In this document: positions 795 to 42,040 of the stretch, piece after piece
How positions within the stretch are numbered: the stretch's first letter is position 1
How the letters are laid out: every line of letters starts with the position of its first letter
DNA from: Pristiophorus japonicus
Taxonomy: Eukaryota
DNA: 64,000 nucleotides
Direction: 5' to 3'
Assembly (NCBI RefSeq): GCF_044704955.1
Contig: NC_091997.1
Location: 5,952,001-6,016,000, forward strand
The notes under the pieces: model-generated
The model's database searches: none
What the model was told of the DNA's origin: nothing
What the model saw: the letters and a program-made list of their open reading frames with translations, nothing else
Translations under genes and position numbers: made by a program

Positions 795-1247
795 ATGAAG
801 ACGGTCAATGAAGACGGTAAAAGCCAATCAGAGGGCAAGGATGGAGATGGCTTTTCTCTGTCCCTGGATGTTCAGCGGCTCTCCCCAGAAGAACTGAAGG
901 TGAAAGTACTTGGAAGAAAAGTGCTGGTGACAGGAAAACACGAGAAGAAAAGTGATGATGGGAGCGGCTCTTACAGCTACAAATATGAAGAGTTCAGGAG
1001 AGAATTTCAGCTGCCAGAAGATGTCGATGCTCAAGCTCTTAACTGCTGTTTGTCACAGGACGGTCGGTTAAAGGTTCAAGCCCCACGCCTGGCACTGCCA
1101 GCTGTGAATGGACGAACCGTCCCCATCAACATCACCTCTGATACAACAACCGCTCCCCGACTAAACCCAGGCAAAGAGGCACAGAAACAGGACGGTGGAA
1201 AGGATGAGGGGAACAAGGAAGAGGCGGAAGGAAAAAAGGACATTTAA
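795..1247 (+). pseudogene. HSP30/HSPB9-like small heat-shock gene copy A: 3' part (ACD plus tail) downstream of a CR1 insertion; 150-aa ORF still open
   Basis: FSLSLDVQRLSPEELKVKV...GKHE...FRREFQLPEDVD...LSQDGRLKVQAP is an ACD, followed by a V-P-I motif; AATAAA at 1431-1436; 5' part lies outside the window. Confidence 0.85.
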
Positions 1248-1594
1248 GACTCATTTACATTAATATTTTCTCATATATAAGAAACAATATATGCAGAAAT
1301 TAGTTTAAGACAATGATATGAAGTCACAATGATAAACATTAATTCTTGTTTTTATCTTGTATTTCTCAAATTGTTCACTATGCCATTATTCACATTAGAC
1401 GGTATTATAATTATATATGTGTATTGAGCCAATAAATATTTTGGAACAGTGATGTCCATGATTCACCTTGTTAACTTGTTAAATAGATAATATTACACAA
1501 TTCAAAAACTAGCCACTTACTTCCTTTCACTCTCAGTAAAGGCACTCATTTGAATTTGGCTTAACTTAGAAACAGAAACAGGATTCAAAAAGTT

Positions 1595-2275
1595 AGTATG
1601 CAGATAGAGCAAGTAATCAGGAAGGCAAATGGAATGTTGGTCTTTATTGCAAGGGGGATAGAGTATAAAAGCAGAGAAGTCCTGCTACAACTGTACAGGG
1701 TATTGGTGAGGCCACACCTGGAGTACTGCGTACAGTTTTGGTCTCCGTATTTAAGGAAGGATATACTTGCATTGGAGGCTGTTCAGGGAAGGTTCAGTCG
1801 GTTGATTCCGGGGATGAGGGGGTTGACTTTTGAAGCTAGGTTGAGTAGGTTGGGCTTATACTCATTGCAGTTTAGAAGAATGAGAGATGATCTTCTCGAA
1901 ACATATCAGATAATGATGGGGCCCGACAAGGTGGATACAGAGAGGGTATTTCCACTCATAGGGGAAACTAATACTAGGGACATAGTCTCAGAATAAAGGG
2001 CCGCTCATTTCAAACTGAGATGAGAAGGAATTTCTTCTCAGAGGGTTGTAAATCTATGGAATTCTCTGCCCAGAGAGGTGTTGAGGCTGTGTCATTGAAT
2101 ATATTTGAGGCTGAGATAGACAGATTTTTGAGTGATAAGGGAATAAAGGGTTATGGGGAGAGGGCAGGGAATTGGAGCTGAGTCCATGATCAGATCAGCC
2201 ATGATCTTATTAAATGGCAGAGCAGGCTCAAGGGGCCAGATGGCCTACTCCTGCTTCTATTTCTCATGTTCTTAT
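1595..2275 (+). mobile_element. CR1 LINE 3' fragment (paralogues 17142-17822 and, inverted, 27377-27794)
   Basis: LYRVLVRPHLEYCVQFWSP CR1 C-terminal motif followed by the CR1 3' UTR. Confidence 0.9.
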
Positions 2276-2733
2276 ATGTAAAGATCTGCCTCAGACTGAA
2301 CTCAGTCCGGTAAAACGTGTGAAAACATTGTACAGACCCACTGCACCAATAGCTGAGTACATCTCTGTGCCCAGAGACATTCACTGCAGCCTCACAATGA
2401 CCAGCAATAACAGCCCATCTTCCAACACAGGCACCAGACGGCCCACCATTCATTTAGTGCATGGTCGTAACCCTTTCATTGGCGTTATCTGCTCAATATA
2501 AATAACTGGGAGGAAAAGCAAAGTTACTTGCTGTGTAAGCATGTTTCTTAAAGTTTAAGTTAAATAGTATTACCAATCCTTCACCCTTCAGCCCTCTATC
2601 TTTAAGTATCAATGAGATCATAAAACCATGCAATAGTACAGCACAGAAGGACATTTGGCCCATCGTGTCTGTGCTGTCTCTTTTGAAGAGTAATCTAGTT
2701 AGTCCCTTTCTTGCTCTTTCCCCATATCCCTGC

Positions 2734-2945
2734 TGTTGTATATGGAGAAAGAGTCAAACTGAACACTGTGAGCTCAAAGTAAAGTGTTACCTTCGTCTTT
2801 TACTGCAGGTCTCCAGAGTACCTCTCCTACCTGTGAAGCCTCCTTCAATACCTGTGCTCCCAAGGGATTATGGGATCCCTTGGGACTCCAGGAGATGAGC
2901 CCTCTGGTGGCTGTACAGAGTAGATGCAAGTTTACCTATATAACA
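2734..2945. mobile_element. Solo LTR, 212 bp (paralogue 18281-18491)
   Basis: TGTTG...TAACA termini; 5-bp TSD CCTGC at 2729-2733 and 2946-2950; empty site in the inverted paralogue at 26921-26925. Confidence 0.85.
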
Positions 2946-3937
2946 CCTGCAATTTTACCTCCTTCAAACATTTATCCCATTCACTTTTGAAGGCTACGAC
3001 TGAATCTCTCTCCATCAGCCTATCAGGCAGTGCGACCCAAATCCTAACCAGGCGTCGAGTTAAAACGGTTTTTCCTCACGTTGCCTCTTGTTCTTTTGAT
3101 AATTTTCTTAAATCTGTGCCCTCTCCTGATCGACCCTGTGTAATAATTCTCGCAGTGTCAGTCAGCGGTGAGATTGCTTCGGTAAATTTACTGTGTTACA
3201 GCATCGGACAAACTGCTCGTGTTTAGGCTGCTGCAGGACAGCTGGAAACATCAGTAACCGTATCACAGCTCCCAGAGTACACATGAGCAATGCCACAGGA
3301 GGTCAAGAAGTAAAGTATTAAATGGTGTACAGTCTGTAAACTCAGAATATGAACTTAAGTCAACCCTGGAATATATTTAATTGTTACACTAGCCAAACAC
3401 AGCAAGGAATAAAGATTCATGTTGCAGTCCATAGGAGACGGGTTTGTGTATGGATACAGTCAAGGAACCATTTACCAAGTTATGGTGTTGGGAGTGGGGT
3501 TACCAACTCTCCTTGAAGGCATTCCTGGAGATTTGATCATGTCACATTCTGATCACATGACATCTGAGCATGTGATGCCGGATCATGTGTCATCTGATCA
3601 CATGATCCAATGTCTATCCCATTCACTTTGAAATGTAGTTTTAGTCACTACCTCAATAGCCACATGTGGTGAAGGATCCCACGGTCCAATAGCCGTCAGT
3701 TGAAGAAGCTCCCTCCTCCCTTCCACCTTGTTTCTTTCAGTGTGAACTTTTGGTTTCCGTTCCTAAATTCCCCATTTGCCTACCAGTGTAATCAACCTCT
3801 CACTATTTACCTACAGTGAAGTCTCCAGGTTTCACGCAGCCCTTTATTGGCTGCTGCTCTCTCAATACCGCTCGCACTCATCACCTTGCTGCTGTTGCTC
3901 CCGCTCTGCGGAAAATGCTGGTCCCCACCTGCCATGT

Positions 3938-5702: not shown

Positions 5703-5925
5703 TATGTAAATTATTTGTATTCACTATGTAACTATGTACGATGTACCACCTGAGGGCGCTGCTGTTGGAGGCCCCAGGGGTTTCCTGCCCTGGTGTGCAG
5801 GGGCATAGACAAGGCAGCCAGCCATGCTGCCCCTCACTTTGCAGTCGTATAAAATGGACTGAAATCACACAGCTCTCATGGTACAAGGCCTCGTGGAGTT
5901 ATTCGATGGTAATTGCAGACATAAT
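5703..5925 (+). mobile_element. Degenerate Gypsy-type solo LTR (paralogue ~21253-21476)
   Basis: Shares blocks CCACCxGAGGGCxCT, AAATGGACT and CCTCGTGGAGT with the LTRs at 9266-9537 and 13152-13445. Confidence 0.55.
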
Positions 5926-5946
5926 CCGACCATCACTCCACTTGCA

Positions 5947-7406: not shown

Positions 7407-7500
7407 TGTCTCTGCCTCTTCTATCACTTCTCACAAACACGACTGATGTGAACTCCCGGTCTTCAGTCTCTGATCTGCTACAGCACTCAGAACACCCGCC

Positions 7501-14482: not shown

Positions 14483-16794
14483 ATGGTGCTGAGCTTTCAG
14501 GCGTCCCAGTCTTCACATGTGAGCCAGCAGCCTGCAGTCACTCTGAGGCTGCTCCCACACAGTGTCTTTGAACAGCTCGAACACAACAGGCCGAAAGCAG
14601 TGGTGGAAGCAAGGAAGACCATGTATTGGCTTCATGAGCTGCTGGCAAAAGGATTGTCGGAGCTAAGATCAAAATATCAGGACAATGGTACTGATGTCAT
14701 AGAAACATAGAAACATAGAAAATAGGTGCAGGAGTAGGCCATTCAGCCCTTCGAGCCTGCACCGCCATTCAATGAGTTCATGGCTGAACATGCAACTTCA
14801 GTACCCCATTCCTGCTTTCTCGCCATACCCCTTGATCCCCCTAGTAGTAAGGACTACATCTAACTCCTTTTTGAATATATTTAGTGAATTGGCCTCAACA
14901 ACTTTCTGTGGTAGAGAATTCCACAGGTTCACTACTCTCTGGGTGAAGAAGTTTCTCCTCATCTCGGTCCTAAATGGCTTACCCCTTATCCTTAGACTGT
15001 GACCCCTGGTTCTGGACTTCCCCAACATTGGGAACATTCTTCCTGCATCTAACCTGTCGATACCCATCAGAATTTTAAACGTTTCTATGAGATCCCCTCT
15101 CATTCTTCTGAACTCCAGTGAATACAAGCCCAGTTGATCCAGTCTTTCTTGATATGTCAGTCCCGCCATCCCGGGAATCAGTCTGGTGAACCTTCGCTGC
15201 ACTCCCTCAATAGCAAGACTGTCCTTCCTCAAGTTAGGAGACCAAAACTGTACACAATACTCCAGGTGTGGCCTCACCAAGGCCCTGTACAACTGTAGTA
15301 ACACCTCCCTGCCCCTGTACTCAAATCCCCTCGCTATGAAGGCCAACATGCCATTTGCTTTCTTAACCGCCTGCTGTACCTGCATGCCAACCTTCAATGA
15401 CTGATGTACCATGACACCCAGGTCTCGTTGCACCTCCCCTTTTCCTAATCTGTCACCATTCAGATAATAGTCTGTCTCTCTGTTTTTACCACCAAAGTGG
15501 ATAACCTCACATTTATCCACATTATACTTCATCTACCATACATTTGCCCACTCACCTAACCTAGCCAAGTCACTCTGCAGCCTAATAGCATCCTCCTCGC
15601 AGCTCACACTGCCACCCAACTTAGTATCATCCGCAAATTTGGAGATACATTTAATCCCCTCGTCTAAATCATTAATGTACAATGTAAACAGCTGGGGCCC
15701 CAGCACAGAACCTTGCGGTACCCCACTAGTCACTGCCTGCCATTCTGAATAGTACCCATTTACTCCTACTCTTTGCTTCCTGTCTGCCAACCAGTTCTCA
15801 ATCCACGTCAACACGCTACCCCCAATCCCATGTGCATTAATCTCTTGTGTGGGACCTTGTCGAAAGCCTTCTGAAAGTCCAAATATACCACATCAGCTGG
15901 TTCTCCCTTGTCCACTCTACTGGAAACATCCTCAAAAAATTCCACAAGATTTGTCAAGCATGATTTGCCTTTCACAAATCCATGCTGACTTGGACCTATC
16001 ATGTCACCTCTTTCCAAATGTGCTGCTATGACATCCTTAATAATTGATTCCATCATTTTACCCACTACTGATGTCAGGCTGACCGGTCTATAATTCCCTG
16101 TTTTCTCTCCCTCCTTTTTTAAAAAGTGGGGTTACATTGGCTACCCTCCACTCCATAGGAACTAATCCAGAGTCTATGGAATGTTGGAAAATGACTGTCA
16201 ATGCATCCGCTATTTCCAAGGTCAACTCCTTAAGTACTCTGGGATGCAGTCCATCAGGCCCTGGGGATTTATCGTCCTTCAATCCCAACAATTTCGCAAC
16301 ACAATTTCCCGACTAATAAGGATTGCTTTCAGTTCCTCCTTATGAAGACGGTCAATGAAGACGGTAAAAGCCAATCAGAGGGCAAGGATGGAGATGGCTT
16401 TTCTCTGTCCCTGGATGTCCAGCGGCTCTCCCCAGAAGAACTGAAGGTGAAAGTATTTGGAAGAAAAGTGCTGGTGACAGGAAAACACGAGAAGAAAAGT
16501 GATGATGGGAGCGGCTCTTACAGCTACAAATATGAAGAGTTCAGGAGAGAATTTCAGCTGCCAGAAGATGTCGATGCTCAAGCTCTTAACTGCTGTTTGT
16601 CACAGGACGGTCGGTTAAAGGTTCAAGCCCCACGCCTGGCACTGCCAGCTGTGAATGGACGAACCGTCCCCATCAACATCACCTCTGATACAACAACCGC
16701 TCCCCGGCTAAACCCAGGCAAAGAGGCACAGAAACAGGACGGTGGAAAGGATGAGGGGAACAAGGAAGAGGCGGAAGGAAAAAAGGACATTTAA
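14483..16794 (+). pseudogene. HSP30-like copy A', interrupted by an antisense CR1
   Basis: 5' part 14483-14698 (MVLSFQ...KYQDNGTDV) joins in frame to 16354-16794 (NEDGK...KKDI) to rebuild a 218-aa sHSP; AATAAA at 16978-16983. Confidence 0.9.
14700..16341 (-). mobile_element. 5'-truncated CR1 LINE inserted in copy A'
   Basis: (CATAGAAA)3 tail, RT ORF pieces 14798-16291; GTCA duplicated at 14696-14699 and 16351-16354. Confidence 0.95.
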
Positions 16795-19700
16795 GACTCA
16801 TTTACATTAATATTTTCTCATATATAAGAAACAATATATGCAGAAATTAGTTTAAGACAATGATATGAAGTCACAATGCTAAACATTAATTCTTGTTTTT
16901 ATCTTGTATTTCTGAAATTGTTCACTATGCCATTATTCACATTAGACGGTATTATAATTATATATGTGTATTGAGCCAATAAATATTTTGGAACAGTGAT
17001 GTCCATGATTCACCTTGTTAACTTGTTAAATAGATAATATTACACAATTCAAAAACTAGCCACTTACTTCCTTTCACTCTCAGTAAAGGCACTCATTTGA
17101 ATTTGGCTTAACTTAGAAACAGAAACAGGATTCAAAAAGTTAGTATGCAGATAGAGCAAGTAATCGGGAAGGCAAATGGAATGTTGGTCTTTATTGCAAG
17201 GGGGATAGAGTATAAAAGCAGAGAAGTCCTGCTACAACTGTACAGGGTATTGGTGAGACCACACCTGGAGTACTGCGTACAGTTTTGGTCTCCGTATTTA
17301 AGGAAGGATATACTTGCATTGGAGGCTGTTCAGGGAAGGTTCAGTCGGTTGATTCCGGGGATGAGGGGGTTGACTTTTGAAGCTAGGTTGAGTAGGTTGG
17401 GCTTATACTCATTGCAGTTTAGAAGAATGAGAGATGATCTTCTCGAAACATATCAGATAATGATGGGGCCCGACAAGGTGGATACAGAGAGGGTATTTCC
17501 ACTCATAGGGGAAACTAAAACTAGGGACATAGTCTCAGAATAAAGGGCCGCTCATTTCAAACTGAGATGAGAAGGAATTTCTTCTCAGAGGGTTGTAAAT
17601 CTATGGAATTCTCTGCCCAGAGAGGTGTTGAGGCTGTGTCATTGAATATATTTGAGGCTGAGATAGACAGATTTTTGAGTGATAAGGGAATAAAGGGTTA
17701 TGGGGAGCGGGCAGGGAAGTGGAGCTGAGTCCATGATCAGATCAGCCATGATCTTATTAAATGGCAGAGCAGGCTCAAGGGGCCAGATGGCCTACTCCTG
17801 CTCCTATTTCTCATGTTCTTATATGTAAAGATCTGCCTCAGACTGAACTCAGTCCAGTAAAACGTGTGAAAACATTGAACAGACCCACTGCACCAATAGC
17901 TGAGTACATCTCTGTGCCCAGAGACATTCCCTGCAGCCTCACAATGACCAGCAATAACAGCCCGTCTTCCAACACAGGCACCAGACGGCCCACCATTCAT
18001 TTAGTGCATGGTCGTAACCCTTTCATTGGCGTTATCTGCTCAATATAAATAACTGGGAGGAAAAGCAAAGTTACTTGCTGTGTAAGCATGTTTCTTAAAG
18101 TTTAAGTTAAATAGTATTACCAATCCTTCACCCTTCAACCCTCTATCTTTAAGTATCAATGAGATCATAAAACCATGCAATAGTACAGCACAGAAGGACA
18201 TTTGGCCCATCGTGTCTGTGCTGTCTCTTTTGAAGAGTAATCTAGTTAGTCCCATTCTTGCTCTTTCCCCATATCCCTGCTGTTGTATATGGAGAAAGAG
18301 TCAGACTGAACACTGTGAGCTCAAAGTAAAGTGTTACCTTCATCTTTTACTGCAGGTCTCCAGAGTGCCTCTCCAACCTGTGAAGCCTCCTTAAATACCT
18401 GTGCTCCCAAGGGATTATGGGATCCCTTGGGACTCCAGGAGATGAGCCCTCTGGTGGCTGTACAGAGTAAATACAAGTTTACCTAGAAACACCTGCAATT
18501 TTACCTCCTTCAAATATTTATCCCATTCCCTTTTGAAGGCTACGACTGAATCTCTCTCCATCAGCCTATCAGGCAGTGCGACCCAAATCCTAACCACGCG
18601 TCGAGTTAAAACGGTTTTTCCTCACGTTGCCTCTTGTTCTTTTGATAATTTCCTTAAATCTGTGCCCTCTCCTGATCGACCCTGTGTAATAATTCTCGCA
18701 GTGTCAGTCAGCGGTGAGATTGCTTCAGTAAATTTACTGTTACAGCAACAGACAAACTGCTCGTGTTTAGGCTGCTGCAGGACAGCTGGAAACATCAGTA
18801 ACCGTATCACAGCTCCCAGAGTACACATGAGCAATGCCACAGGAGATCGAGTAGTAAAGTATTAAATGGTGTACAATCTGTAAACTCAGAATATGAACTT
18901 AAGTCAACCCTGGAATATATTTAATTGTTACACTAGCCAAACACAGCAAGGAATAAAGATTCATGTTGCAGTCCATAGGAGACGGGTGTGTGTATGGATA
19001 CAGTCAACGAACCAGTTACCAAGTTATGGTGTTGGGAGTGGGGTTACCAACTCTCCTTGCAGTCATTCCTGGAGATTTGATCATGTCACATTCTGATCAC
19101 ATGACATCTGAGCATGTGATGCCGGATCATGTGTCATCTGATCACATGATCCAATGTCTATCCCATTCACTTTGAAATGTAGTTTTAGTCACTACCTCAA
19201 TAGCCACATGTGGTGAAGGATCCCACGGCCCAATAGCCGTCAGTTGAAGAAGCTCCCTCCTCCCTTCCACCTTGTTTCTTTCAGTGCGAACTTTTGGTTT
19301 CCGTTCCTAAATTCCCCATTTGCCTACCAGTGTAATCAACCTCTCACTATTTACCTACAGTGAAGTCTCCAGGTTTCACGCAGCCCTTTATTGGCTGCTG
19401 CTCTCTCAATGCCGCTCGCACTCATCACCTTGCTGCTGTTGCTCCCGCTCTGCGGCAAATGCTGGTCCCCACCTGCCATGTATAATGGGGAACAAAGAAA
19501 TGGCAGACTAGTTGAACAAATACTTAGGTTCTGTTTTCACGAAGGAAGACACAAATAACCTTCTGGAAGCATTAGGGGACCGAGGGTCTAGTGAGAAGCA
19601 GGAACAGAAGGATAACCTTATTATGCGGGAAATTGTGTTCGGGAAATTGATGGGATTGAAGGCCAATAAATCCCCGGGGGCCTGATAGTCTGCATCCCAG

Positions 19701-21498
19701 GCTATTTAAGGAAGTGGCTCGAGAAATATTGGATGCATTGGTGATCCTTTTCTAACAGTCTATTGACTCTGGATCTGTTCCTATAGACTGGAGGGTAGCT
19801 AATGTAACACCACTTTTTAAAAAAGGAGGGTGAGAGAAAACAAGTAATTATAGGCCTGTTACCCTGACATCAGTAGTGGGGAAAATGTTGGAATCAGTTA
19901 TTAAAGATGAAATAACAGCACATTTGAAAAGCAGTGACAGGATCGGTCCAAGTCAACATGGATTTATGAAAGGGAAATCAGCTTGACAAATCATCTGGAA
20001 TTTTTTGAGGATGTAACTAGTAGAGTGGACAAGGGAGAACCAGTGAATGTGGTGTATTTGGATTTTCAGAAGGCTTTTGACAAGGTCCCACACAAGGGAT
20101 TGGTGTGCAAAATTAAAGCACATGGTATTGGGGTAATATACTGACGTGGATAGAGAACTGGTTGGCAGACAGGAAGCAGAGAGTCGGGATAAATGGATCT
20201 TTTTCAGAATGGCAGGCAGTGACTAGTGGGGTGTCGCAGGGCTCAGTGCTGGGAACTCAGCTATTTACAATCTACATTAATGATTTGGATAAAGAAATTG
20301 AGTGTGATATCTTAAAGTTTGCAGATGACACTAAGCTGGGTGGCGGTGTGAGCTGTGAGGAGGACGCTAAGAGGCTGCAGGGTGACTTGGACAGGTTAGG
20401 TGAGTGGGCAAATGCATGGCAGATGCGGTATAATGTGGATAAATGTGAGGTTATCCACTTCGGGGGCAAAAACACAAAGGCAGAAATTATCTGACTGGCG
20501 GCAGATTAGGAAAAGGGGAGATGCACCGAGACCTGGGTGTCATGGTACATCAGTCATTGAAAGTTGGCATGCAGGTACAGCAAGCGGTGAAGAAGGCAAA
20601 TGGTATGTTGGCCTTCATAGCTAGGGGATTTGAGTATAGGAGCAGGGAGGTCTTACTGCAGTTGTACAGGGCCTTGGTGAGGCCTCACCTGGAATATTGT
20701 GTTCAGTTTTGGTCTCCTAATCTGAGGAAGGATGTTCTTGCTATTGAGGGAGTGCAGCGAAGATTCACCAGACTGATTCCTGGGTTGGCTGGACTGATAT
20801 ATGAGGAGAGACTGGATCGACTGGTCCTGTATTCACTGGAGTTTAGAAGGTTGAGAGGGGATCTCATAGAAACATATGAAATTCTGACGGGACTGGACAG
20901 GTTAGATGCAGGAAGAATGTTCCCGATGTTGGGGAAGTCCAGAACCAGGGGACACAGTCGAAGGATAAGTGGTAAGCCATTTAGGACTGAGATGAGGATA
21001 AACTTCTTCACTCAGAGAGTTGTTAACCTTTGGAATTCCTGCCACAGAGAGTTGTTGAGGCCAGTTCGTTAGATGTATTCAAGAGGGAGTTAGATATGGC
21101 CCTTACGGCTAAAGAGATCAAGGGGTATGGAGAGAAAGCAGGAAAGGTGTACTGAGGTGAATGATCAGCCATGATCTTATTGAATGGTGGTGCAGGCTCG
21201 AAGGGCCGAATGGCCTACTCCTGCACCTATTTTCTATGTTTCTATATTTCTGTGTATGTAAATTCTTTGTACTCACTATGTAACTATGTACGATGTACCA
21301 TTGAGGGTGCTGCTGTTGGAGGCACCAGGGGTTTCCTGCCTTGGTGTGCAGGGGCAGAGACAAGGCAGCCAGCCATGCTGCCCCTCACTTTGGAGTCAGA
21401 TAAAATGAACTGAAGTCACACAGCTCTCACGGTACAAGGCCTCGTGGAGTTATTCGATGGTAATTGCAGACATAATCTGACCATCACTCCACTCGCAC

Positions 21499-21816
21499 CT
21501 GAGCCAGAAGGAGTTGGGTTCAAGCCCCAGTCTATCGGACTCAGCACATGATTTAGGCTGACACTTCAGTGAGGGAATGCTGCACTGTAGGAGGTGCCAT
21601 CTTTCAGATGGGACATTAAACTCAAGCCCCATCTGCCCTCTTGGGTGGAAATAAAAGATCCCATTACACTATTCAAAGAACAACTGCAGAATTCTCACAG
21701 ATTCCTGGGCAACATTGGCCCCTCAACCAAACCCAACAAAAACAGATTATCTGCTCATTTCTCACATTGTGTGTGTGAGACTCTGCTCGTTGTAACATGT
21801 GCTGCTGCATGTGGCT
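21499..21816 (+). mobile_element. DeuSINE copy truncated at a duplication breakpoint
   Basis: Matches 5947-6265, then homology stops abruptly. Confidence 0.75.
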
Positions 21817-22579: not shown

Positions 22580-23258
22580 TGGCACCAAGCTTATGGTCTA
22601 CAGGGCTGTAGTGATACCCACCCTCCTGTGTGGCTCGGAGACATGGACCATATACAGTAGACACCTGAAGTCACTGGAGAAATACCACCAACGATGTCTC
22701 CGCAAGATCTTGCAAATCCCCTGGGAGGATAGACGCACCAACGTCAGTGTTCTCGATCAGGATAACATCTCTAGCATCGAAGCACTGACCACACGCGACC
22801 AGCTCCGTTGGGTGGGCCACATTGTTCGCATGCCTGAAACAAGACTCCCAAAGCAAGTGCTCTATTCGGAACTCCTACACAGCAAGCAAGCCCCAGGTGG
22901 GCAGAGGAAACATTTCAAGGTCACCCTCAAAGCCTCCCTGATAAAGTGCGACATCCCCACTGACATCTGGGAGACCCTGGCCAAAGTGGTGGAAGAGCAT
23001 CCAGGAGGGAACATCGCCGAGAACATGCAGGAGGGAACATCGCCGAGAACATGCAGAAAACAAGCGCAGGCAGCGGAAGGAGCGTGCAGCAAACCAGACT
23101 CCCCACCCACCCTTTCCTCCTCCGATTGTCTGTCCCACCTGCGACAGAGACTGTGATTCCCACCTTGGACTCCTCAGTCACCTGAGAACTCACTTTTAGA
23201 GTGAAAGCAAGGCTTCCTCGATTTCAAGGGACTGCCTCTGATGATGATAATGATGATG
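22580..23258 (+). mobile_element. RTE-clade LINE 3' fragment
   Basis: ORF 22566-23156: YRAVVIPTLLCGSETW...LRWVGHIVRMPETRLPKQVLYSEL; (ATG)n tail. Confidence 0.88.
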
Positions 23259-23860
23259 TACTTGCGCTGTGAAGAAAGTGATACGGGGCTGTGGAGAGCC
23301 ACCGAGTAGATCACTGAGAACCTGACCACCGTTGGTATTAGCTACACGTGGGTTTTTGCTTAAAATTGCTTGAATGTAAAGTAGATAAACTGTTAGCCAT
23401 ACTATTACTGTTACTTGTACCAGTGTTATTGTTCTTTAGTTAGGATTACCCCGTGAGGATAAACATTATATCCGTCTCTTTTGAATTGTCGGTTCCACAA
23501 GACTGAACTCTGTAAACTGAAGATAAGTCTCACACAAATTAATCAAATTACAAGGGAATTAATGGCCCTCTATTGGGCAGAATCAGAACACCACTTAATT
23601 TAAACCAAACTGATCTGAATTTCATTCTTTCTGATCACTCTGCTCTGCTGTGGTTAAATGTCACTTTAATATCTTGAACATGACTGAAAATAGCAAGCTA
23701 GAAAGTCACTGACCGACTCTTCATTATCTCACAATGTTAGTTGATCGTTCACTAAGTTGAACACATCCACTTCTCAGCAAACACCCCTTTACCACACAGT
23801 CTGCCTTGTACTGGGCTGTCAATCATTTGCCCCTCCCACCTGTGCTGTCACTGGGTGAGT

Positions 23861-24031
23861 ACATTCCACAAGTCTCTGGAATTGCACCAGTGGGTGTCAC
23901 TGAATCCCAGTCATTCTTGTTTAAAGCAAGGCTGAGATGAGACCTCGGTTATTTTCTGCTCACGTGTCATAACCCCAGCAATGTTGAGCTAATTCTGGAA
24001 GTGTCTGGAGTTCTGGGAGTGCAATATATAA
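23861..24031 (+). promoter_or_regulatory. Heat-shock promoter of copy B'
   Basis: Distal HSE-like 23863-23882, E-box CACGTG 23961-23966, proximal HSE ~23992-24014, TATATAA 24025-24031. Confidence 0.8.
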
Positions 24032-24125
24032 GGCGGGTGTTCTGAGTGCTGTAGCAGATCAGAGACTGAAGACCGGGAGTTCACATCAGTCGTGTTTGTG
24101 AGAAGTGATAGAAGAGGCAGAGACA

Positions 24126-24788
24126 ATGCTGAGCTGTCGGGCTGTCCACCCTTCACGTCTGTGCCAGCAGCCTGTGTGCACATTGTGGCCTGTCCCACAC
24201 ACAGTCTTTGAGACGTTTGAATGCAACAGGTGGGAACAGGAGGAAGAAGTGAGAAACAGCATGAACTTCATGAACCGAGTTCTTGGGGAGCTGGCCAAAG
24301 AATTCTGGGAGGGAAGACCAAAATATCAGGAAACCAGACCTGATGACAATGAAGACGGTAAAAGCCAATCAGAGGGCAAGGATGGAGATGGCTTTTCTCT
24401 GTCCCTGGATGTCCAGCAGTTCTCCCCAGAAGAACTGAAGGTGAAAGTACTTGGAAGAAAAGTGCTGGTGACAGGAAAACACGAGAAGAAAAGTGATGAT
24501 GGGAGCGGCTCTTACAGCTACAAATATGAAGAGTTCAGGAGAGAATTGCAGCTGCCAGAAGATGTCGATGCTCAAGCTCTTAACTGCTGTTTGTCACAGG
24601 ACGGTCGGTTAAAGGTTCAAGCCCCACGCCTGGCACTGCCAGCTGTGAATGGACGAACCGTCCCCATCAACATCACCTCTGATACAACAACCGCTCCCCG
24701 ACTAAACCCAGGCAAAGAGGCACAGAAACAGGACAGGGGCCTGGTTGTTGAGAACAAGACACAGGCTGAAAGGAATGAGGACTGTTGA
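24126..24788 (+). CDS. Intact intronless HSP30/HSPB9-like protein, copy B' (220 aa)
   Basis: ATG at 24126, full ACD, near-identical to copy B. Confidence 0.9.
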   Translation: MLSCRAVHPSRLCQQPVCTLWPVPHTVFETFECNRWEQEEEVRNSMNFMNRVLGELAKEFWEGRPKYQETRPDDNEDGKSQSEGKDGDGFSLSLDVQQFSPEELKVKVLGRKVLVTGKHEKKSDDGSGSYSYKYEEFRRELQLPEDVDAQALNCCLSQDGRLKVQAPRLALPAVNGRTVPINITSDTTTAPRLNPGKEAQKQDRGLVVENKTQAERNEDC

Positions 24789-25159
24789 TACTCATTTACA
24801 GTGAACTTGTGCCGCACATCACAGAGAAATTTTATACTGGGGAAATGAGATTCAAGTGAATTTGTGTAAAACTGAGAAAGTGATTCATTCTGTTCTTTCT
24901 GTATGTCTGAAAAATGCTTTCTGTTAACGATATCTTTTCTTGATTACGAGCGTTATATTTTAAGTTGCATATTGTGGGACTAAAGTACAAATCTCTGAAT
25001 GGAATCCATCTATGCTGTATGATTCTATATTCATGAGAATTTTATTATATTTTTGTTGTATTTGCGAATCTCATAACAAAATATATAATTTCTTTCTAAA
25101 CTCATCGCAGCTTTATTTTCCACGAATTTATGTTTAAAAATATATTATTTCTGTATAAA

Positions 25160-25608
25160 GAAAGCAAGAATTTGCATTGATATAGCACCTTCCATGCACT
25201 CAGGATATCTCAAAGTGCTTCACATCCGATTAAATCCTTTTGAAGTGCGGTCATTGTTGCAATGTAGTCACATGCAGCAGCACATGTTACAACGAGCAGA
25301 GTCTCACACAATGTGAGAAATGAGCAGATAATCTGTTTTTGTTGGGTTTGGTTGAGGGGCCAATGTTGGCCAGGAATCTGTGAGAATTCTGCAGCTGTTC
25401 TTTGAATAGTGTCATGGGATCTTTTACTTCCACCCAAGAGGGCAGATGGGGCTTGAGTTTAATGTCCCATCTGAAAGATGGCACCTCCTACAGTGCAGCA
25501 TTCCCTCACTGAAGTGTCAGCCTAAATTATGTGCTGAGTCCGATAGACTGGGGCTTGAACCCAACTCCTTCTGGCTCAGGTTAGAATGCCTCAGCCAAGA
25601 CTGCCACC
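25160..25608 (-). mobile_element. DeuSINE, near full length
   Basis: Reverse complement of 5947-6372 plus additional 5' head sequence. Confidence 0.75.
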
Positions 25609-29110: not shown

Positions 29111-32100
29111 TAATATGTCCTTACTACACAGTATAAATGCACACGAGGCCCATACTTGAGAGAAGGTCACTCTGTGACCAGTTACCTTTATTAGGAAGAC
29201 CTCAAGAGGCAGATGGTGGGTGGAGCTTCTCCTTTTATATCTGTAAGTCCAGGTTAGGAGTGTCTCCCACAAGTTCGCCCCCCTGTGGTCAGTGTTCTCA
29301 AGGTATACAACTTAGGTCAGCTTATACATGGGTTACAATGACAGTTGAATACATGACATCACCTTCCCCCCAAAGCCTTATTGGGATCACAGGTTGAGTC
29401 TCTCTGGTGGTTTACGCTCCCTTGTAGAGCGCCTGAGTTGGGGCTCCGGTTGTTTGGCGCTGGCCTGAGTGTCTGCTGTTTGCGGTGCCTCAGGCCTGTC
29501 CGGACTGCCCACAATGACTGGGCTCTCCTCCACTTGGTTCCGTTGTTCGGTCACCTGTGGTGGTGTGAACTCTACATCGTGTTCTTCCTCTGCTTCTTCT
29601 ATGGGGCTGCTGATACCTCCTTTTAGTTTGATCCACGTGTTTGCGGCAGATTTGTCCATTGGTAAGTTTAACTACCAAAATCCTATTCCCCTCTTTGGCA
29701 ATCACAGTGCCTGCGAGCCATTTGGGCCCTGCAGTGTAATTAAGGACAAAAACAGGGTCATTGACATCAATACATCGTGCCCTCGCATTCCTGTCATGGT
29801 AGTCACATTGTGACTGACGCCTGCTCTCAACAATTTCTTTCATGGTGGGGTGTATAAGGGATAACCTGGTTTTGAGCATCCTTTTCATTAGCAGCTCTAC
29901 AGGTGGAACCCCTGTGAGCGAGTGTGGTCGGGATCTATAGGCCAACTGGAGGCGTGATAAGCGGCTTTGTAGGGAACTCCCTTGGATTCTGAGCATCCCC
30001 TGTTTGATTATCTGCACTGCTCGTTCTGCCTAGCCGTTTGAGGCCGACTTGAACAGTGCCGTTCTGACATGGTTGATACCATTGCCTGCCATGAAGTCCT
30101 GGAATTCAGTGCTTGTGAAGCATGGGCCATTGTCGCTGACCAAGACATCTGGTAGACCGTGGGTGGCGAACATTGCTCGTAGACTTTCTACCGTGGCAGA
30201 GGATGTGCTTGAATTTAAAATGTCACACTCAATCCATTTAGAGGAGGTGTCCACTACAATCAAAAACATTTTTCCCATGAAAGGACCTGCGTAGTCCACA
30301 TGGATGCGTGACCATGGCTTGGCGGGCCAGGACCAGAGGCTAAGGGGGGCTTCCCTGGGCGCATTGCCCAGCTGGGCACACGTGTTGCATCTGCGAACAC
30401 AAAGTTCCAGGTCTGCATCTATCCCTGGCCACCAAACGTGTGACCTGGCAATTGCCTTCATCATGACAATGCCCGGGTGCTCATTGTGGAGTTCTCTGAT
30501 AAACACCTCTCTGCCCTTCTGGGGCATGACTACTCGGTTTCCCTACAGTAGGCAATCGGCCTGAATCGAGAGTTCATCCTTGCGCCTATGAAACGGTTTA
30601 AACTCCTCAGGGCATGCCCCATACGTGGCTGCCCAGTCCCCATTCAGGACACATTTCTTAACTAAAGACAGTAGCGGGTCTTTATTTGTCCAGACTTTAA
30701 TCTGACGGGCTGTCACAGGTGAGCCTTCGCTTTCGAAAGCTTCAACAGCCATGACCATTTCAGCATCATGCTCAGCTGCCCCCTCAGTGGTGGCTAGTGG
30801 GAGCCTGCTGAGTGCATCGGCACAGTTTTCAGTGCCTGGTCTGTGCCGAATTGTGTAGTCATAGACGGCTCACGTAAGTGCTCACCTCTGTATGTGGGCC
30901 GATGCATTCGCATTTATGGCCTGGTTGTCGGCCAAAAGGGACATTAGGGGTTTGTGATCTGTTTCCAGCTCAAATTTCCTGCCAAACAGGTACTGGTGCA
31001 TTTTTTTTACTGCACATACACATGCTAGCACTTTCTTTTCTACCATCCTGTATCCCCTTTCTGCCTGGGACAGACTCCTGGAGCATAAGCTACCGGCTGT
31101 AACTGACCTTTGACATTCACATGCTGCAACACACACCCGACCCCATAGGACGACGCATCGCACGTTAAAACTAGTTTCTTACACAGGTCATATAACGTTA
31201 ACAGTTTGTTGCAGCATAACAAATTGCGTGCTCTATCTAAAGCCCTTTCCTGGCTGTCCCCCCAGACCCAATCGCGACCTTTGTGTAGGAGCACGTGTAG
31301 CGGCTCTAACAGCGTGTTCAATTTACGAAGAAAGTTGCCAAAATAGTTCAGAAGCCACAGGAACGAACGCAGCTCCATCGTGTTACGGGGACTGTGTGCT
31401 CTCTGGATCGCTTCCATTTTGGATGCAGTAGATCTGATCCCGCCTGCTGCTACCCTCCTCCCCAGGAATTCTAACTCTGGGGCTAAGAAGACGCACTTCG
31501 CCTTTTTCAGTCGCAGCCCTATCCGGTCCAGTCTGCGTAGCACCTCCTCCAGGTTGTGGAGGTGTTCTTCAGTATCGCGACCCGTGATGAGGATGTCGTC
31601 TTGAAAAACCACCGTCCTTGGAATCGACTTGAGGAGGCTTTCCATATTTTGCTGAAAGATCGCGGCGGCCGAGCGAATCCCGAACGGACATCTGTTGTAC
31701 TCAAACAACCCCTTGTGTGTCGTGATGGTGGTCAGCTTCTTCGACTCACTCGCCAGCTCCTGGGTCATGTAAGCTGAGGTCAGGTCCAATTTTGAAAAAG
31801 TTTGCCACCGGATGGTGTTGCAAAGAGGTCCTCTGCTCTCGGTAGCGGGTACTGGTCTTGGAGTGACACCCGATTGATGGTGGCCTTGTAATCGCCACAT
31901 ATTCTGACCGAGCCATCCGCCTTGAGCACCGGCACAATCGGGCTCGCCCAGTCACTGAATTCAACTGGTGAGATGATGCCTTCCCTCAGCAAGCGGTCCA
32001 ATTTGCATTCTATCTTTTCCCGCATCATGTACGGCACCGTTCTGGCCTTGTGGTGTACTGGCCTGGCGTCCGGGTTTATGTGAATCACTACCTTGGCCCC

Positions 32101-33882
32101 CATGAAAGTGCCGATGCCGGGTTGAAATAATGAGTCAAATTTGTCCAGGACCTGTGAGCATGATACTCGCTCGACAGAAGAAATTGCATTGACATCGCCC
32201 CATTTCCAGTACATGACAGCAAGCCAACTCCTCCCCAGTAGTGCGGGACCATCCCCCGGGACAATACAGAGTGGCAACCTGTTCTCCGAATCTTTGTGGG
32301 TCACAACTACCGTGGCACTGCCTAGCACCGGAATTATCTCCTTTGTATATGTCCGTAGCAGTTCGTCAATCGGCAATAATTTTGGCCTCCTGGCCTTGGA
32401 CACCCACAACCTTTCAAACTGTTTGATATTCATCAGGGATTGGCTGGCCCCTGTGTCTAGCTCCATTAATACTGGGATGCCATTGAGGAGCACTTTCATC
32501 ATTATCGGTGGGGTCCTGGTGTATGAACTGTACACGTGCTCCACATGAACTCGCTGAACTTCAGCTTCCAGCGATTTCCCCCAGTGTCCATTTGGCCTCG
32601 TAGGGCTTACATCGGGCCCGTCCTCCTCGTACATCAACCTGGCTGCAGGCTTCCTGCACATACGCGCCAAGTGACCACTGACGTTGCAGTTTCTGCAGGT
32701 ATATTGCTGACATATTGCTGATATCTGCAAGCTCTGGCTGGGTGTTTGCCTCCACACCTCCAGCATGAACTGGAGGCCCCATTGTTGGAAACAAAAGGTC
32801 CATTACCAGTCGATCGTCTCTTACTGTTTCTGTGACTGTCCTAAAACGCACCATTAACAGGTGTTGATGGCCCCATTACTGACCGCATTGTCCATTGCGA
32901 TGCATGAATCGCCGTTCAGCTAGCCATTGTCTCTGTTGAATTCCCCCTTTGGGTTCGACTGCATGCTGGGGCATGTCCGATTGCCCCTGTCTGCCTCGAG
33001 AACTGTGTGCCGCATTAACAATGTTGACTCCCTGGTCGTTTGCTGTATTTGAGCCAAGATTTTTGTCATGCATCATTCTGATCTCTTCCTCCCCTGAGAT
33101 AGTTGTCTGGGCTATCAGAGCCGCCGCTTCCAAGGTCAAGTCTTTGGTCTCAATCAGTTTCCTGAAAACCCCAGTGTGCCCGATGCCCTCAATAAAAAAG
33201 TCTCGCAGCATCTCCGCTCTGCATGCGCCTGGGAACTTACATAGTCTCGCCAGTCGCCGGAGATCTGCCACAAAGTCTGGAACGCTTTGCCCTTCTTGCC
33301 GCCAGTGCGTGTAAAACCGGTGTCTCGCCATGTGCATGCTGCTCCTCGGTTTAAGGTGTTCTCCGATCAACTTACTGAGCTCTTCGAACGTCTTGTCCGC
33401 GGCTTTTCTGGTGCTCGAAGGTCCTTCATCAGGGAGTACATTCTGGATCCACAAACCGTCAGGAGATGAGCCCTGCGTTTGTCGGTCGAATCCTGTCCCA
33501 ACTATTCCTTCATGACAAAACTTTGCAGTAGTCTCTCAATAAAGTCGTCCCAATCATCACCAACACAGTACCTCTCTTCTGTGCTGCTAGTGGCCATGCT
33601 CGCGTGGTTTAAATCCCAGTTTCTCGTCGCCAATAATATGTCCTTACTATACAGTATAAATGCACACGAGGCCCATATTTGAGAGAAGGTCACTCTGTGA
33701 TCAGTTACCTTTATTACCAAGACCTCAAGAGGCAGACGGTGGGTGGAGCTTCCCCTTTTATGCCGGAAAGTCCAGGTTAGGAGTGTCTCCCACAAGTTCG
33801 CCCCCCTGTGGTCAGTGTTCTCAAGGTATACAACTTAGGTCAGCTTATACCATGGGTTACAATGACAGTTGAATACATGACA
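29111..33882 (-). mobile_element. Full-length decayed Ty3/Gypsy LTR retrotransposon
   Basis: LTRs 33634-33882 and 29111-29358; TSD TTAAC; PBS TGGCGACGAG; PPT 29359-29374; gag (ATG 33597), protease ELDTGA, RT FQDD, RNase H CDAS, integrase HHCC plus DYAG/DNG, in PR-RT-RH-IN order. Confidence 0.96.
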
Positions 33883-34856
33883 TTAACCAATAGCAAATAT
33901 AAGCTGTCCAGGTTGAGAACATTCAGTCAGTTTTGATCTGCTTTTTGTGCCATCATTGTAAAGAAAATAATTTGATGTAATTATGAGCTGCAGTGGACTT
34001 GTGATCAGAAAGTGATATTCCGACCAGTTCGATGTGAAATACATAAATATTGTAATTCTATCCCATACAGAGTCATTAATTCCCTCGGTTTGTGTCTGTA
34101 ATTCACTGCAGTGATGACCCATTATTGTCCAGTTCTACAATCTTGTATCAAAACTCTGTGTTCTTTCCCATGTCAGTGGTCTCCTCTGCATACACTGTCA
34201 CTGAACTGTGACTTTGATATTGTTTACAAACTTTAAAGGGTGTTTTGTACAGTGCAGGAAGTATAGTGTTAATTAGTGGTCACTGTCTGCATGAGGAGAC
34301 TAGCAACACCCCAGTGGTTTCGCCCACAGTGAGTTGGAGGATACATATGTTTATCAGTGAAGTGTGAGGGGGCAGCTGCTGTAGGAAGGGTGATATTTAC
34401 AGGAACTTTGCACGATACACAAGACACTCAAATATATTATAGATGTAGAGATTGTGTAAAGGGTTTGGGGAAGGGCAACAAAGATCCCGGAGCAATAAAC
34501 AATCACTAAATATATACCCCTTTCAAAATGTTTTGAATATTTAAAAATAATAAAAGGGAATTGATGAGGTGGATGTGGAGAATTATGTTGTGCAGAATCA
34601 GAATACACCATTATAACCTAAAGAAATCACCAAACTCAGCTCATTTGTCGATTAATCATTAATTTATGGAACACTGCCACCTAGTGGAAAGAGCAGCAGT
34701 TACAGGATTAAAAAATAAGTTCCTTTCTCATTCCTGTCCTTGTAATAAACTGGGGACAGGGAGGGAGGAAATATTCAACAGACAATAATGGCCCAAAATT
34801 GCTGCCTAAGTAAAGGTGAGGCGAATAGCGCTCACCATTATTTATGTGTAAATGCC

Positions 34857-38806: not shown

Positions 38807-39563
38807 TTAAACGGGGAAATTGAAAAGTCTGAAATGCGCCGCTCCGCTGTTAACTTTGTGAAAACGGTATCTCCCCATTCAAATGCATTGAGCGGCGTAA
38901 AGGTCCTGTACTTATAAAGTAGATACAAAGTAAACTCGCCACAAGTTAAGTAATTTCATTTCAAGTCTAAGTATCCTTTTAACATGATAAATGTTAATTA
39001 CTGCCAGCCAACGTCTCTTGCACTGAAAATTAACTATTATATTTGCAAAGTCTCATTCCTTCAGGTTTTAATTATTGTTGGAGATTTGTTTTTTTTAAAC
39101 TTTATCTATCGCTCTCTTTTTTCTCAGTTAATCTAATCTTTCTTTCCCTCTTTATTTCTCTTTCTGTATCTGACTTGATATTGAATTCACCCATTTTAAA
39201 TTAAACTTCCTTGACAGTCTCTGTACTGTTAATTTCAGAATCTTTCAATCTGATTGGTGAAGGAGATATACACAGTCCCTTGCTCTGTTCACTCAGATCC
39301 CAGATCCCTGTAGAGGGGCCCATATCGTTTCCACCTCCCACTTCCAGCAACTTTAAGGGCAAAATATGGCCGATATTAAATGGGCAAGGGCACGTCTAAG
39401 TAACAGCGGGCGCCGTCTACTGGCTGCCGTAATGTCTGGGCCACTGTGCTTGCAGAAATCAGACCGTTTAAAAATGTTTAACCTTGTCCCATCACATTTC
39501 ACACTTTGTATTGTTTTAACAACAGAAAATCATCTAAAAGACAGGTTAATCCTATTGGACGAG

Positions 39564-40215
39564 TGTTAGCGCGAATGTTTTCCTGCAAGAATCACTCGAC
39601 ACTCTGGGTCGGTTCCAACGCCAAAACGGCTTTTATTACACCGGCGGGGAGAGAGCCTCTGGTCCAACTCCAGGCACTCCACTCCACTGAACAAAGAAAT
39701 TCATCGATATTTATATGTTTTACAATAGTTCATTACAGTTACTCAGCCCACTTCGGCTGGACACAATCCAATCATAACGATTATAGATTACATATAGGTT
39801 TCTTTAACCCAATAGAATTCCCCTGATACCTCAGGGGCTGTATGTTCCTTTTTTGTCAGCTCGGGCTGATTAATGACCTCGTTATGTGAGGTGGGCCCCC
39901 CTCATCTCTGTTCCTCGAGGCTCTGCTGTGTGAAGTCCTTGATTAAGGACATTCCATACCAGGTACTATAATGGTTCGTTATAGTTATCTTGTCTCAAGC
40001 GGATGCTCCAAGGCATTCCCGGCAGTGGGCCTCACAGGGTCATTACTCGGTCAGCCTCAGTCAACAGTTCATTGCTTGACTAACTGAGTTCCCATCATGC
40101 TTGGGCAGCCATTTTATATGTGGCCACTTTAAACCTATATGAGTTTAGATATATTTAGCAGGTGCCTAATGCCTAGTGTTTTGATATATTCAGCAGGTGC
40201 CTAATGCCTACAACA
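39564..40215 (-). mobile_element. Solo LTR, 652 bp
   Basis: TGTT...AACA termini; 5-bp TSD ACGAG (39559-39563, 40216-40220); TATA-like and AATAAA motifs on the minus strand; internal 28-bp duplication. Confidence 0.8.
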
Positions 40216-41464
40216 ACGAGATTAAGATCTGAATTAATTAAGGGCTGGATGATAAATTGGAGTTACCTGCATTGCGGAGCTCCCTGTCTCAGATACAGTC
40301 AACATATACCAGCTATCTTCCCACAGAGGGCAGAAGGTTCCTGCTCAAGTAGCCAGTATTCAAATGGTAGCTAAACAGTGATTGTTGGAAGACTGCAACA
40401 TTGAAGACCAATCAAATCCGTGCCCAATGTCTATACATCAACACTTCCATCAGGGGTCCACCCTATAGCAAGCAAGAGTGGAAAACTTTGCTGAGTTTTC
40501 CTTTCCAATCCCGGAGTTCTGCAAACATTCCTGGCGCTCCAATTCCTGTCCCACCCGAGACAATAGCTTTCGAGTTATCGCAGGAATCAGCAGACTTAAT
40601 TCAGCAATGTCACTGACAGACCAATACCCTAGTTTTCTGTTTGCAAGGAGTCCCATTATTCAGTATAATGCTTTGTTAGGGTGCCTGGTTTTATCTGTAT
40701 TTCTGATGTATTAATTTTTTCAAAAACTTAAAAATAAATACAAACACACTTAGCCTTCCTTATGCAATTTAAAACCTTTTTCAAGGTCTTCATTTTCTGC
40801 AAGAGTGTTAATGACACAAACATCCATTTTCTTAAACAACAGGGCCACAGAATTAAACTTTTAAATCAATGATTTAACTGACCTCAGTTTCTGGAAGTTT
40901 TGACTAATTTCCAAGCTGTGCATCTGATTTTCTGCACTAAAGTAGTAAATTGAATTTTAACTGCTTAAGTTTGAAAACTGCACTGAACTCCTGAGATATC
41001 CTGGTGTGAAAGGCAGCACAAAGCCATAAATGATTTCACTTCCTGTTTGGCCCACTCACAGACTGTGGGAATTAAACTGAGCCATTTTATACAAAAACTG
41101 ATTTTTTTTTTTATATAAACAATTTTTGAAGTATGAGGGTCTGGTACATTTGCAAAATCGAAAAGAGTCATCAGAGAAAGTGCTCCAGACAAGCTCCTCT
41201 TATTTTTGACGTCAATGAGCGAGCACATTCCAGAACCGTGCCTGCCTGTCACTGGCAGCAGTAATTCCTGTTCAAAGCAAGACTGAGATATCACAATCAA
41301 TTACTGCTCACGTGTCACACGCATTAAACTTCAGTTCATTCTGCAAGGTTATGCACTTCTCAGATTACAAGCCGTGCGTTCTGAACACTCAGAGACTGAA
41401 GATTGGGAGTTTCCAGCTGCCAAGGCTTTCTGAGAACTGCTAAGAGTCATGAGAGGCAGAGAAA

Positions 41465-42040
41465 ATGCAGTGTGGTCACATTTCCCACTCTTGATGCCTG
41501 TGCCAGCAGACTGTGTAAACACCGAGGACTATTCCGCACACCGCCTTTAAGCAGCTTGGGCACAACGTGCGGAAACAGATGGCAGAAGAGAGGAAGAGCT
41601 CGAGCAGCTCTTGCAAAGATTTTTGGAGCAAAAATGAGGAAATCAGGAAACCAGACCTGATGACAATGAAGACGGTAAAAGCCAATCAGAGGGCAAGGAT
41701 GGAGATGGCTTTTCTCTGTCCCTGGATGTCCAGCGGTTCTCCCCAGAAGAACTGAAGGTGAAAGTACTTGGAAGAAAAGTGCTGGTGACAGGAAAACACG
41801 AGAAGAAAAGTGATGATGGGAGCGGCTCTTACAGCTACAAATATGAAGAGTTCAGGAGAGAATTTCAGCTGCTAGAAGATTTGATGCTCAAGCTGTTAAC
41901 TGCTGTTTGTCACAGGACGGTCGGTTAAAGGTTCAAGCCCCACGCCTGGCACTGCCAGCTGTGAATGGACGAACCGTCCCCATCAACATCACCTCTGATA
42001 CAACTGTTACTCTCCAGTCAGAAGTTAGCACAGAGAAGTA
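41465..42040 (+). pseudogene. HSP30-like copy D, pseudogene
   Basis: ATG 41465 (MQCGHISHS*), early stops, frameshift before the ACD and a 1-nt deletion near 41881; ACD DNA 41641-42004 almost identical to the other copies. Confidence 0.9.

Follow-up and report, generated by a model that had tools for sequence, protein, structure and literature searches.

In Drosophila, the available part of the report on the Cid1 and Cid3 genes describes a conserved domain homogenized by recurrent gene conversion, terminal regions that form old separate clades and discordant trees for the individual segments, and IFIT1/IFIT1B is cited there as a like case (PMC5435080). Among small heat-shock proteins (sHSPs), the accessible text on the Caenorhabditis hsp16 genes describes conversion between clustered paralogues in direct and inverted orientation, with tracts that in C. 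briggsae range from 44 to 1113 bp (mean 416), and gives pseudogene-to-gene conversion as a possible source of mutational load (PMC3966223). In birds, according to the excerpt at hand, the chicken HSP25 gene of the HSP30 group is intronless and the avian HSP25/HSP30 group contains N-terminal subfamilies (PMC5101479). The present analysis concerns a 64,000-nt stretch of the Pristiophorus japonicus genome (NC_091997.1, positions 5,952,001 to 6,016,000 of the forward strand; the window), which contains six hsp30/hspb11-like gene copies. Their sequences argue strongly for a gene cluster that evolves by birth-and-death together with frequent ectopic gene conversion.

A profile search of the window with nhmmer gave seven matches, which correspond to the six copies, one of them in two pieces, and no seventh copy was found. 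The copies were labelled A, B, C, E, F and G in positional order, the letter D being skipped. The label pseudogene D of the initial annotation could not be assigned to any of them: copy E, which comes fourth, is intact, and the frameshifted pseudogene is the last copy, G.

1..794, minus strand: fragment of a CR1-type long interspersed nuclear element (LINE) immediately upstream of the copy A core, an insertion shared with copy C
795..1247, plus strand: copy A, core and GGKD..KKDI tail (open reading frame, ORF)
7406-6744, minus strand: copy B, intact hsp30/hspb11 gene of 220 amino acids (aa), type I N-terminus (MLSCRA), RGLV..NEDC tail (ORF, Pfam)
14483..14697, plus strand: 5' piece of copy C, type II N-terminus (MVLSFQ), open frame
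14698..16341, minus strand: 5'-truncated CR1-type LINE of 1.64 kb, antisense in copy C at about codon 74
16342..16794, plus strand: 3' piece of copy C, converted core and linker (16353-16740), GGKD..KKDI tail
24126..24788, plus strand: copy E, intact hsp30/hspb11 gene of 220 aa, type I N-terminus, RGLV..NEDC tail (ORF, Pfam)
24348..24686, plus strand: 339-nt core (NEDGK..ITSDT) common to the six copies, here aa 75-187 of copy E
28733-28140, minus strand: copy F, type I N-terminus (MLSCRA), GGKD tail, in-frame 69-nt deletion (ORF, Pfam)
41465 to about 42100, plus strand: copy G, pseudogene with a decayed type II N-terminus (MQCGHI) and a decayed tail (sequence alignment)

The core comprises 10 codons ahead of the Pfam match, the alpha-crystallin domain and a V-P-I motif (aa 179-181 of copy E). 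Its near-identity in six copies, initially noted together with a set of motifs that are all present in the window, extends to all 15 pairs (97.0-99.6% over 339 nt), and the domains show 95-99% likeness. The N-terminal regions of different types share 61.9-68.8% and the distal tails 43-63%, and the step from 30-40% divergence to 1% is made within a few bases. Synonymous divergence (dS; Nei-Gojobori, few sites) amounts to 0-0.05 in the core, versus 0.46-0.76 in the N-termini and 0.6 or more in tails of different types. Between E and C there are no synonymous differences at 78 core sites and 14.5 at 41.5 N-terminal sites (Fisher p ~6e-8, rounded counts); between E and G there are none at 77.5 core sites and 11.7 at 34.2 N-terminal sites (p ~6e-7, rounded counts). 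The core of pseudogene G is 98.5% identical to that of E, and 9 of the 339 core positions distinguish the intact copies B and E. The comparison of synonymous divergence inside and outside the core, suggested at the outset as a check, favours conversion.

The window is vertebrate DNA with many CR1-type LINEs. The Pfam HSP20 domain (PF00011) scored above cut-off in all four copies scanned (E 71.3, B 71.2, C 70-71 and F 38.2 bits), the match in E covering aa 85-182. Residues 85-184 of E align to positions 70-164 of alphaB-crystallin (E=1.2e-17), and the V-P-I motif, found in all six copies, aligns with I-P-I of that protein; a C-terminal I/V-x-I/V motif is a feature of small heat-shock proteins. 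In a database search with copy E, 61 of 74 matches were shark or ray sHSPs, mostly named 'HSP30C-like' or 'beta-11-like', and the closest named match was a Pristiophorus japonicus protein. The nearest relatives of the copies are HSP30/HspB11 proteins; B, E and F are single ORFs and C is broken by the CR1 only. A site resembling a heat-shock element (HSE) and a TATA box lie upstream of B, E and F; stress-inducible expression and chaperone activity are features of the HSP30/HspB11 group. Copies beyond the window were considered as database proteins (P numbers), and for other species the comparison was confined to protein sequences.

Two of the six copies, B and E, are intact, with termini of the same types (MLSCRA; RGLV..NEDC). 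The N-terminus of A lies beyond the window edge, where A begins behind a CR1 element, and was probably of type II, since the 3' part of A equals that of the database protein P0082, which has an MVLSFQ N-terminus. Positions 1-853 and 15552-16400 are 96.6% identical with an identical junction, and A and C thus carry one CR1 insertion. In copy F the deletion (junction 28416/28415) takes out aa 107-129, that is 23 residues of the domain, and lowers the Pfam score from 71 to 38 bits. Copy G has stops at 41492, 41516, 41635 and 42039 (codons 10, 18, 65 and 200 in the E frame), a 22-nt gap relative to E and a 1-nt deletion in the core; it has no TATA box at the homologous place and keeps one TTCnnGAA at 41228. 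As A/C and B/E are segmental duplicates, the six copies represent four lineages rather than six independent samples.

Two side observations concern losses within the domain. A domain-deleted subunit such as that of copy F, produced from an intact promoter, could interfere with oligomers. The database protein P0075, an intact-looking type I member of the same cluster, is two residues short in the SYSY stretch of the domain, beside the end of the F deletion.

The age of the termini was examined in trees of separate segments. The alignment comprised 52 of 123 fetched proteins and copy G, and trees (LG+G4) were built from 27 of these 53 rows, hand-picked for cover of species and classes; the groups to be tested were set after the alignment had been seen and before any tree had been seen. 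The N-terminal tree rejects a single clade for the seven rows of this species (approximately unbiased (AU) test, p=0.0057): copy C, its sibling P0081 and copy G join the Heptranchias proteins P0036 and P0092 (98/98), and C and P0036 have a 3-residue gap in common. In the core tree the seven rows form one clade (92/88). In the linker-plus-tail tree B and E join Heptranchias P0004 and P0005 (97/86), and the clade of this species is not rejected at 0.05 (AU p=0.087). The segment trees accordingly disagree, the core grouping by species and one N-terminal class grouping with Heptranchias proteins. The same picture is given by the database protein P0026, equal to copy C, which matches a type I paralogue at 96 of 98 domain positions and 26 of 63 N-terminal ones, whereas its domain matches that of the putative orthologue P0036 at 82 of 98.

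Together, the collapse of dS in the core and the discordant trees support the proposal of old paralogue classes with conversion-homogenized cores. The three N-terminal motifs on which three types had been distinguished are all present, but they are read here, with moderate confidence, as two old classes, type I (MLSCRA) and type II (MVLSFQ/MQCGHI). G and C share a weak upstream homology without counterpart in E (score 46, against a maximum of 39 in 100 shuffles; the scores for E are 30 and 34). By these comparisons, two N-terminal and two tail classes would predate the split from Heptranchias. With residues 1-72 of P0036, a type II N-terminus, as the query, the sole match among six candidates was P0036 itself under a strict word filter, which does not imply absence elsewhere.

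The limits of the homogenized segments were determined by a maximal-scoring-segment scan with our own weights (+1/-6), and the surrounding duplicated segments (duplicons) were aligned:

23816..24734 in E (plus strand), 7716-6798 in B and 29043-28194 in F: tract of 919 nt common to E, B and F (scan)
24347-24734 in E coordinates: tract of 388 nt in A and C, aa 74-203 (scan)
24325-24688 in E coordinates, 41642..42004 in the window (plus strand): tract of 364 nt in G, aa 67-188 (scan)
15552..21816, plus strand: direct segmental duplicate of 1-6265 (C in one, A in the other), 97.2% over 6283 columns
22668..25581, plus strand: inverted segmental duplicate of 5946-8839 (E in one, B in the other), 94.4% over 2931 columns

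The edges are as sharp as first described, but no single edge is common to all copies: on the left they lie at 23816, 24325 and 24347 and on the right at 24688 and 24734 (E coordinates), and the 339-nt core is the intersection of differing tracts. The 919-nt tract covers the promoter (HSE-like site at 23993, TATA at 24025), the 5' UTR, the N-terminus, the domain and the linker up to aa 203, and the proximal promoters of B, E and F show no differences in 190 positions. None of the breakpoints (aa 67, 74, 188 and 203, and in the promoter) falls at a boundary of the Pfam match (aa 85-182). The idea of domain-restricted conversion is not supported, since the tracts overrun the domain on both sides, one of them spans promoter and N-terminus, and kilobases are homogenized between duplicons; the tracts follow the remaining homology and not the limits of the domain. 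The A/C duplicons differ at 26 of 2787 positions in the gene-bearing part and at 115 of 3395 beyond it (p=2.5e-11). For B/E, 40 of 2300 positions differ in the surroundings of the gene, as do 68 of 464 in the outer part, which contains a repeat fragment that makes this contrast less safe. Copy G consists of old sequence on both sides of its 364-nt tract, so that its exchange is two-sided, while those of A/C and F are one-sided relative to each other. The left tract edge of A and C adjoins the CR1 insertion and that of G is merely 22 nt away, a coincidence of edges that is suggestive, though not proof, of CR1 stopping the tracts.

Participation of pseudogenes, also put forward in the initial annotation, is strongly supported for the recipient role and probable for the donor role. 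Copy G has four private changes in its 364-nt tract, one of them a frameshift, clustered within 24 nt (~41873-41895; p=0.0008); they may mark an earlier patch left standing between two later tracts, or a single event of error-prone repair. At the rate of the tract changes, about two changes would be expected in the N-terminal part of G, and 2-5 random substitutions yield three stops in at most 0.13% of cases (20,000 simulations each). Because three N-terminal stops are improbable at this rate, G is taken to have been dead long before its core was overwritten, and conversion therefore runs without selection on the recipient.

Transfer in the opposite direction is indicated by the E69-T70 doublet, two replacement changes 2 nt apart, common to E and G alone and at most 10 nt from the G tract edge. 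Among 107 fetched proteins that passed a domain-motif filter, E69-T70 occurs in one, E itself, and D-N in 48. A copy with 35% divergence would be expected to have two such changes, whereas a live gene that differs from its siblings by about 1% would not, and it is consequently probable that G donated this two-codon patch to the intact E. For the CR1-bearing copies, C and F differ at 2 of 319 tract positions (p=0.001 against 3.4%; p=0.09 against 1.7%), and at 24701 the type I allele matched by A is not the one matched by C. F109 is common to C and the intact P0078 and absent from A and P0081, but 10 carpet-shark proteins have it too, and it may have arisen more than once. That A and C received type I sequence after the CR1 insertion is no more than suggested by these patterns.

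Copy C deserves separate consideration, as its MVLSFQ N-terminus is parted from its core by the 1.64-kb CR1. The element has CATAGAAA tail repeats and probably a 4-nt target duplication, with a short stretch of templated filler where it meets the gene on the other side, and its nearest relative in the window is the LINE at 37160-38805 (94.3% identity). The TATA box of C is kept at 14381. Heat-shock elements are built of TTC-type units, and the proximal element of C is degenerate, the C being changed in both of these units. The database model P0026 represents copy C if a GT at 14696 and the AG at 16346-16347 are taken as intron ends, which lie in frame, and in all three database models (P0026, P0081 and P0082) the CR1 is read as a GT-AG intron. 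The donor site of this modelled intron is GTCATA, far from the donor consensus GTRAGT. Relative to E, the N-terminus of C shows a dN of 0.40 and a dS of 0.47.

Contigs (not long reads) of four runs were placed on 14050-16950, and one of these, DNA run X1, may be from the source sample. A joint 14685-16353 in X5, X6 and X7 was rejected as splicing, as it sits where B/F-type sequence departs from C and has the ends TG..GT. The annotated intron would join 14695 to 16348, and this joint is not among the 15 joints listed (there were 493 others). None of the runs listed for 14100-14700 was on record as RNA. Runs X5 and X7, whose kind is not on record, gave very high summed depth on the core and none on 14438-14631, but depth and gaps in contig cover are no ranking evidence and were given no weight. 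That copy C is spliced and functional seems unlikely. The models would stand either for an intron newly acquired by a normally intronless stress gene or for an annotation rescuing a pseudogene, and P0026, P0081 and P0082 may be models of broken genes. As a separate observation, short duplications of host sequence at the CR1 junctions (16342-16366 and 795-819) create an in-frame ATG and an ORF of 150 aa, which contains domain and tail and no N-terminus.

A course of events can be proposed that would produce this mosaic. Selection may first have kept the alpha-crystallin segment similar across classes, so that it stayed alike enough to pair in recombinational repair and would have been reset repeatedly by conversion, while the termini drifted past the point of pairing and escaped. 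Tracts would extend for as long as homology lasts: 364 nt in G, 388 nt in A and C, 919 nt in B, E and F, and kilobases between duplicons. The process would be blind to function, with type I sequence overwriting the core of the dead G and continuing to enter the CR1-broken copies, and with a probable single backflow from G into the intact E. The working output of the window would then be one protein type (B and E), to which a second tail type is added genome-wide.

Several observations weigh against this account. The core clade of this species has a support of 92/88 and is not starred, and the core tree does not reject a clade of C and P0036 (AU p=0.058). The N-terminal joining of C and G carries a long-branch warning, and the counts of N-terminal DNA sites (G+C 21, below E+G 25 and E+C 33) leave the sister status of C and G unconfirmed. 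The linker-plus-tail tree does reject C with P0036 (p=0.013), and the 3' end of C therefore has a different history from its 5' end. Copy C may be alive, as the three CR1-intron models imply, and the timing of its conversion after the CR1 insertion is only suggested. Finally, the one-sided exchange between A/C and F (the F 3' flank is 88% like C) is explained equally well by unequal crossing-over.

Crossing-over between neighbours followed by duplication, giving chimeric genes in the place of conversion, would indeed suit copy F, whose entire 5' side resembles B/E and whose 3' side resembles C over kilobases (88-93%), and the cluster does contain direct and inverted duplicons. As a full explanation it is quite unlikely: G, old on both sides of its tract, would need two crossovers, and the C core is 99.6% like that of F but the flank past the tail only 88%, which means that any crossover preceded the resetting of the core. 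Crossing-over probably had a share in the origin of F or C, yet it cannot explain everything. Purifying selection alone would agree with the conservation of the domain across species, where type I proteins of this species match those of Heptranchias at 92 of 98 positions; it is hardly conceivable as the sole cause, being refuted by a synonymous divergence that has collapsed in the core but not in the N-termini, with synonymous sites as homogenized as replacement sites, even in pseudogene G. Near-identical cores produced by assembly or polishing are very unlikely, although the check rested on contigs, X1 may be the source sample, and an 864-nt X1 contig covering the 5' piece of C overruns the CR1 junction by fewer than the required 31 letters. 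A 354-nt X1 contig lies on 16353-16694, starting and stopping at the core edges of the assembly. A 69-nt skip matching the F deletion occurs in X5 and X7, which are other samples, so that the deletion is not confined to the assembly, and in X6 a contig of 883 nt combines a 5' part of the B/E/F type with a core that lacks the deletion and with a GGKD tail. As contigs keep the mosaic edges and each core has private variants (B 7, G 4 and E 2), collapse of the cores is unlikely, and an independently assembled stingray has the same pattern.

The initial annotation had further proposed that mixing of termini could yield a combinatorial repertoire. In its strongest form this would mean selected, domain-restricted conversion, with co-assembly through the domains and varied termini, and with the CR1 of A and C spliced as a new intron. 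Such a reading draws on the open frame and intact TATA box of the C N-terminal piece, on the in-frame GT and AG around the CR1 with P0026 equal to C so read and three such copies annotated, on intact type I genes with either tail in the genome (P0001, P0075 and P0076 versus P0077 and P0078), and on the uninterrupted type II protein that Heptranchias retains. It is unlikely all the same. Only 4 of 9 possible pairings of N- and C-termini occur, the intact genes of the window carry just one, and the divergent N-termini sit on broken copies. Conversion reached the dead G, the tracts ignore domain limits, and dN close to that level of dS, the changed heat-shock element and the poor donor site speak against a working C. 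The V-P-I motif lies inside the homogenized part, so that intact genes differ from one another in no more than the distal 17 residues, and the repertoire could not be upheld for this window. Birth-and-death with ectopic conversion remains the preferred explanation.

Other elements of the window include a long terminal repeat (LTR) retrotransposon about 380 nt upstream of the F start codon:

29111..33883, minus strand: LTR retrotransposon, LTRs at 29111-29359 and 33634-33883 (95.2%)

It contains gag/pol-like ORFs in pieces and a zinc knuckle, and by these ORFs we take it to be Gypsy-like. A second LTR-bounded element at 9280-13444 has 256-nt repeats (9280-9535 and 13189-13444, 94.9%) and a LINE inserted at ~11028-12544. 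A long CR1-type LINE at 35814-38805, which includes the relative of the copy C element at 37160-38805, has a 759-aa ORF with endonuclease and reverse transcriptase (RT) domains, and a tandem repeat array at 43872-44536 gives staggered self-matches of 85-90%.

A parallel was found in stingrays. The N-terminus of Hemitrygon P0057 matches Hypanus P0056 at 64 of 66 positions and its own paralogue P0042 at 30 of 66, whereas its domain matches P0042 at 94 of 98 and P0056 at 82 of 98, and aa 183-203 match at 21 of 21 versus 12 of 21. A clade of P0057 and P0056 is rejected by the tail tree (p=0.0026) and not by the core tree (p=0.0997). As an intact model with a conserved N-terminus, P0057 appears to be a better candidate for a functional version than the shark window, and the P0057/P0056 pair would be the cleanest example of domain resetting with selected N-termini. 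The type II core of Heptranchias is far less homogenized (84 of 98 to P0002), and the strength of conversion therefore differs by lineage. A general scheme for cartilaginous fish, in which hsp30 paralogues keep selected N-termini and have their domains reset for co-assembly, the shark CR1 is spliced as an intron and a dead copy feeds a live one, is doubtful. The literature searches turned up no paper on conversion in hsp30 genes of sharks or rays, and older fish and Xenopus hsp30 work in subscription journals may have been missed.

The termini of sHSPs shape their oligomers, and human cases of pseudogene-to-gene conversion such as CYP21A1P are known. The shark cluster resembles such load cases in the exchange between dead and live paralogues, with the candidate G-to-E two-codon patch; it differs in that the patch sits in the variable linker ahead of the domain, where its effect is only hypothetical. 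It offers a natural example of a self-maintaining conversion island, in which one recipient is dead, one tract edge lies at a retroelement and a pseudogene has probably passed sequence to a gene. For practical work, the shark hsp30 paralogues cannot be separated by trees, primers or read mapping that rely on the alpha-crystallin domain.

Like other HSP30/HspB11 genes, those described here have a single exon and encode about 220 aa with one alpha-crystallin domain; they differ in their tandem clustering, in the presence of two old N-terminal classes and in their mosaic history. With Cid1/Cid3, as presented in the available part of PMC5435080, they share a homogenized domain, old terminal clades and discordant segment trees. 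Both Cid partners are retained genes and the breakpoint described in that text lies at the transition of tail and domain, whereas in the shark the divergent partners are broken (G a pseudogene, A and C with the CR1) and the edges vary by pair and reach the promoter and linker. The range of C. briggsae hsp16 tracts brackets the 364-919 nt of the shark, while old terminal classes or conversion into pseudogenes are not described in the accessible text of PMC3966223. The shark hsp30 cluster is thus best seen, from its sequence, as a new case of a known process, that of Cid1/Cid3 and hsp16, and if the stingray lead is true, sHSPs would join the few families in which an assembly domain is kept compatible by conversion while the tails specialize.

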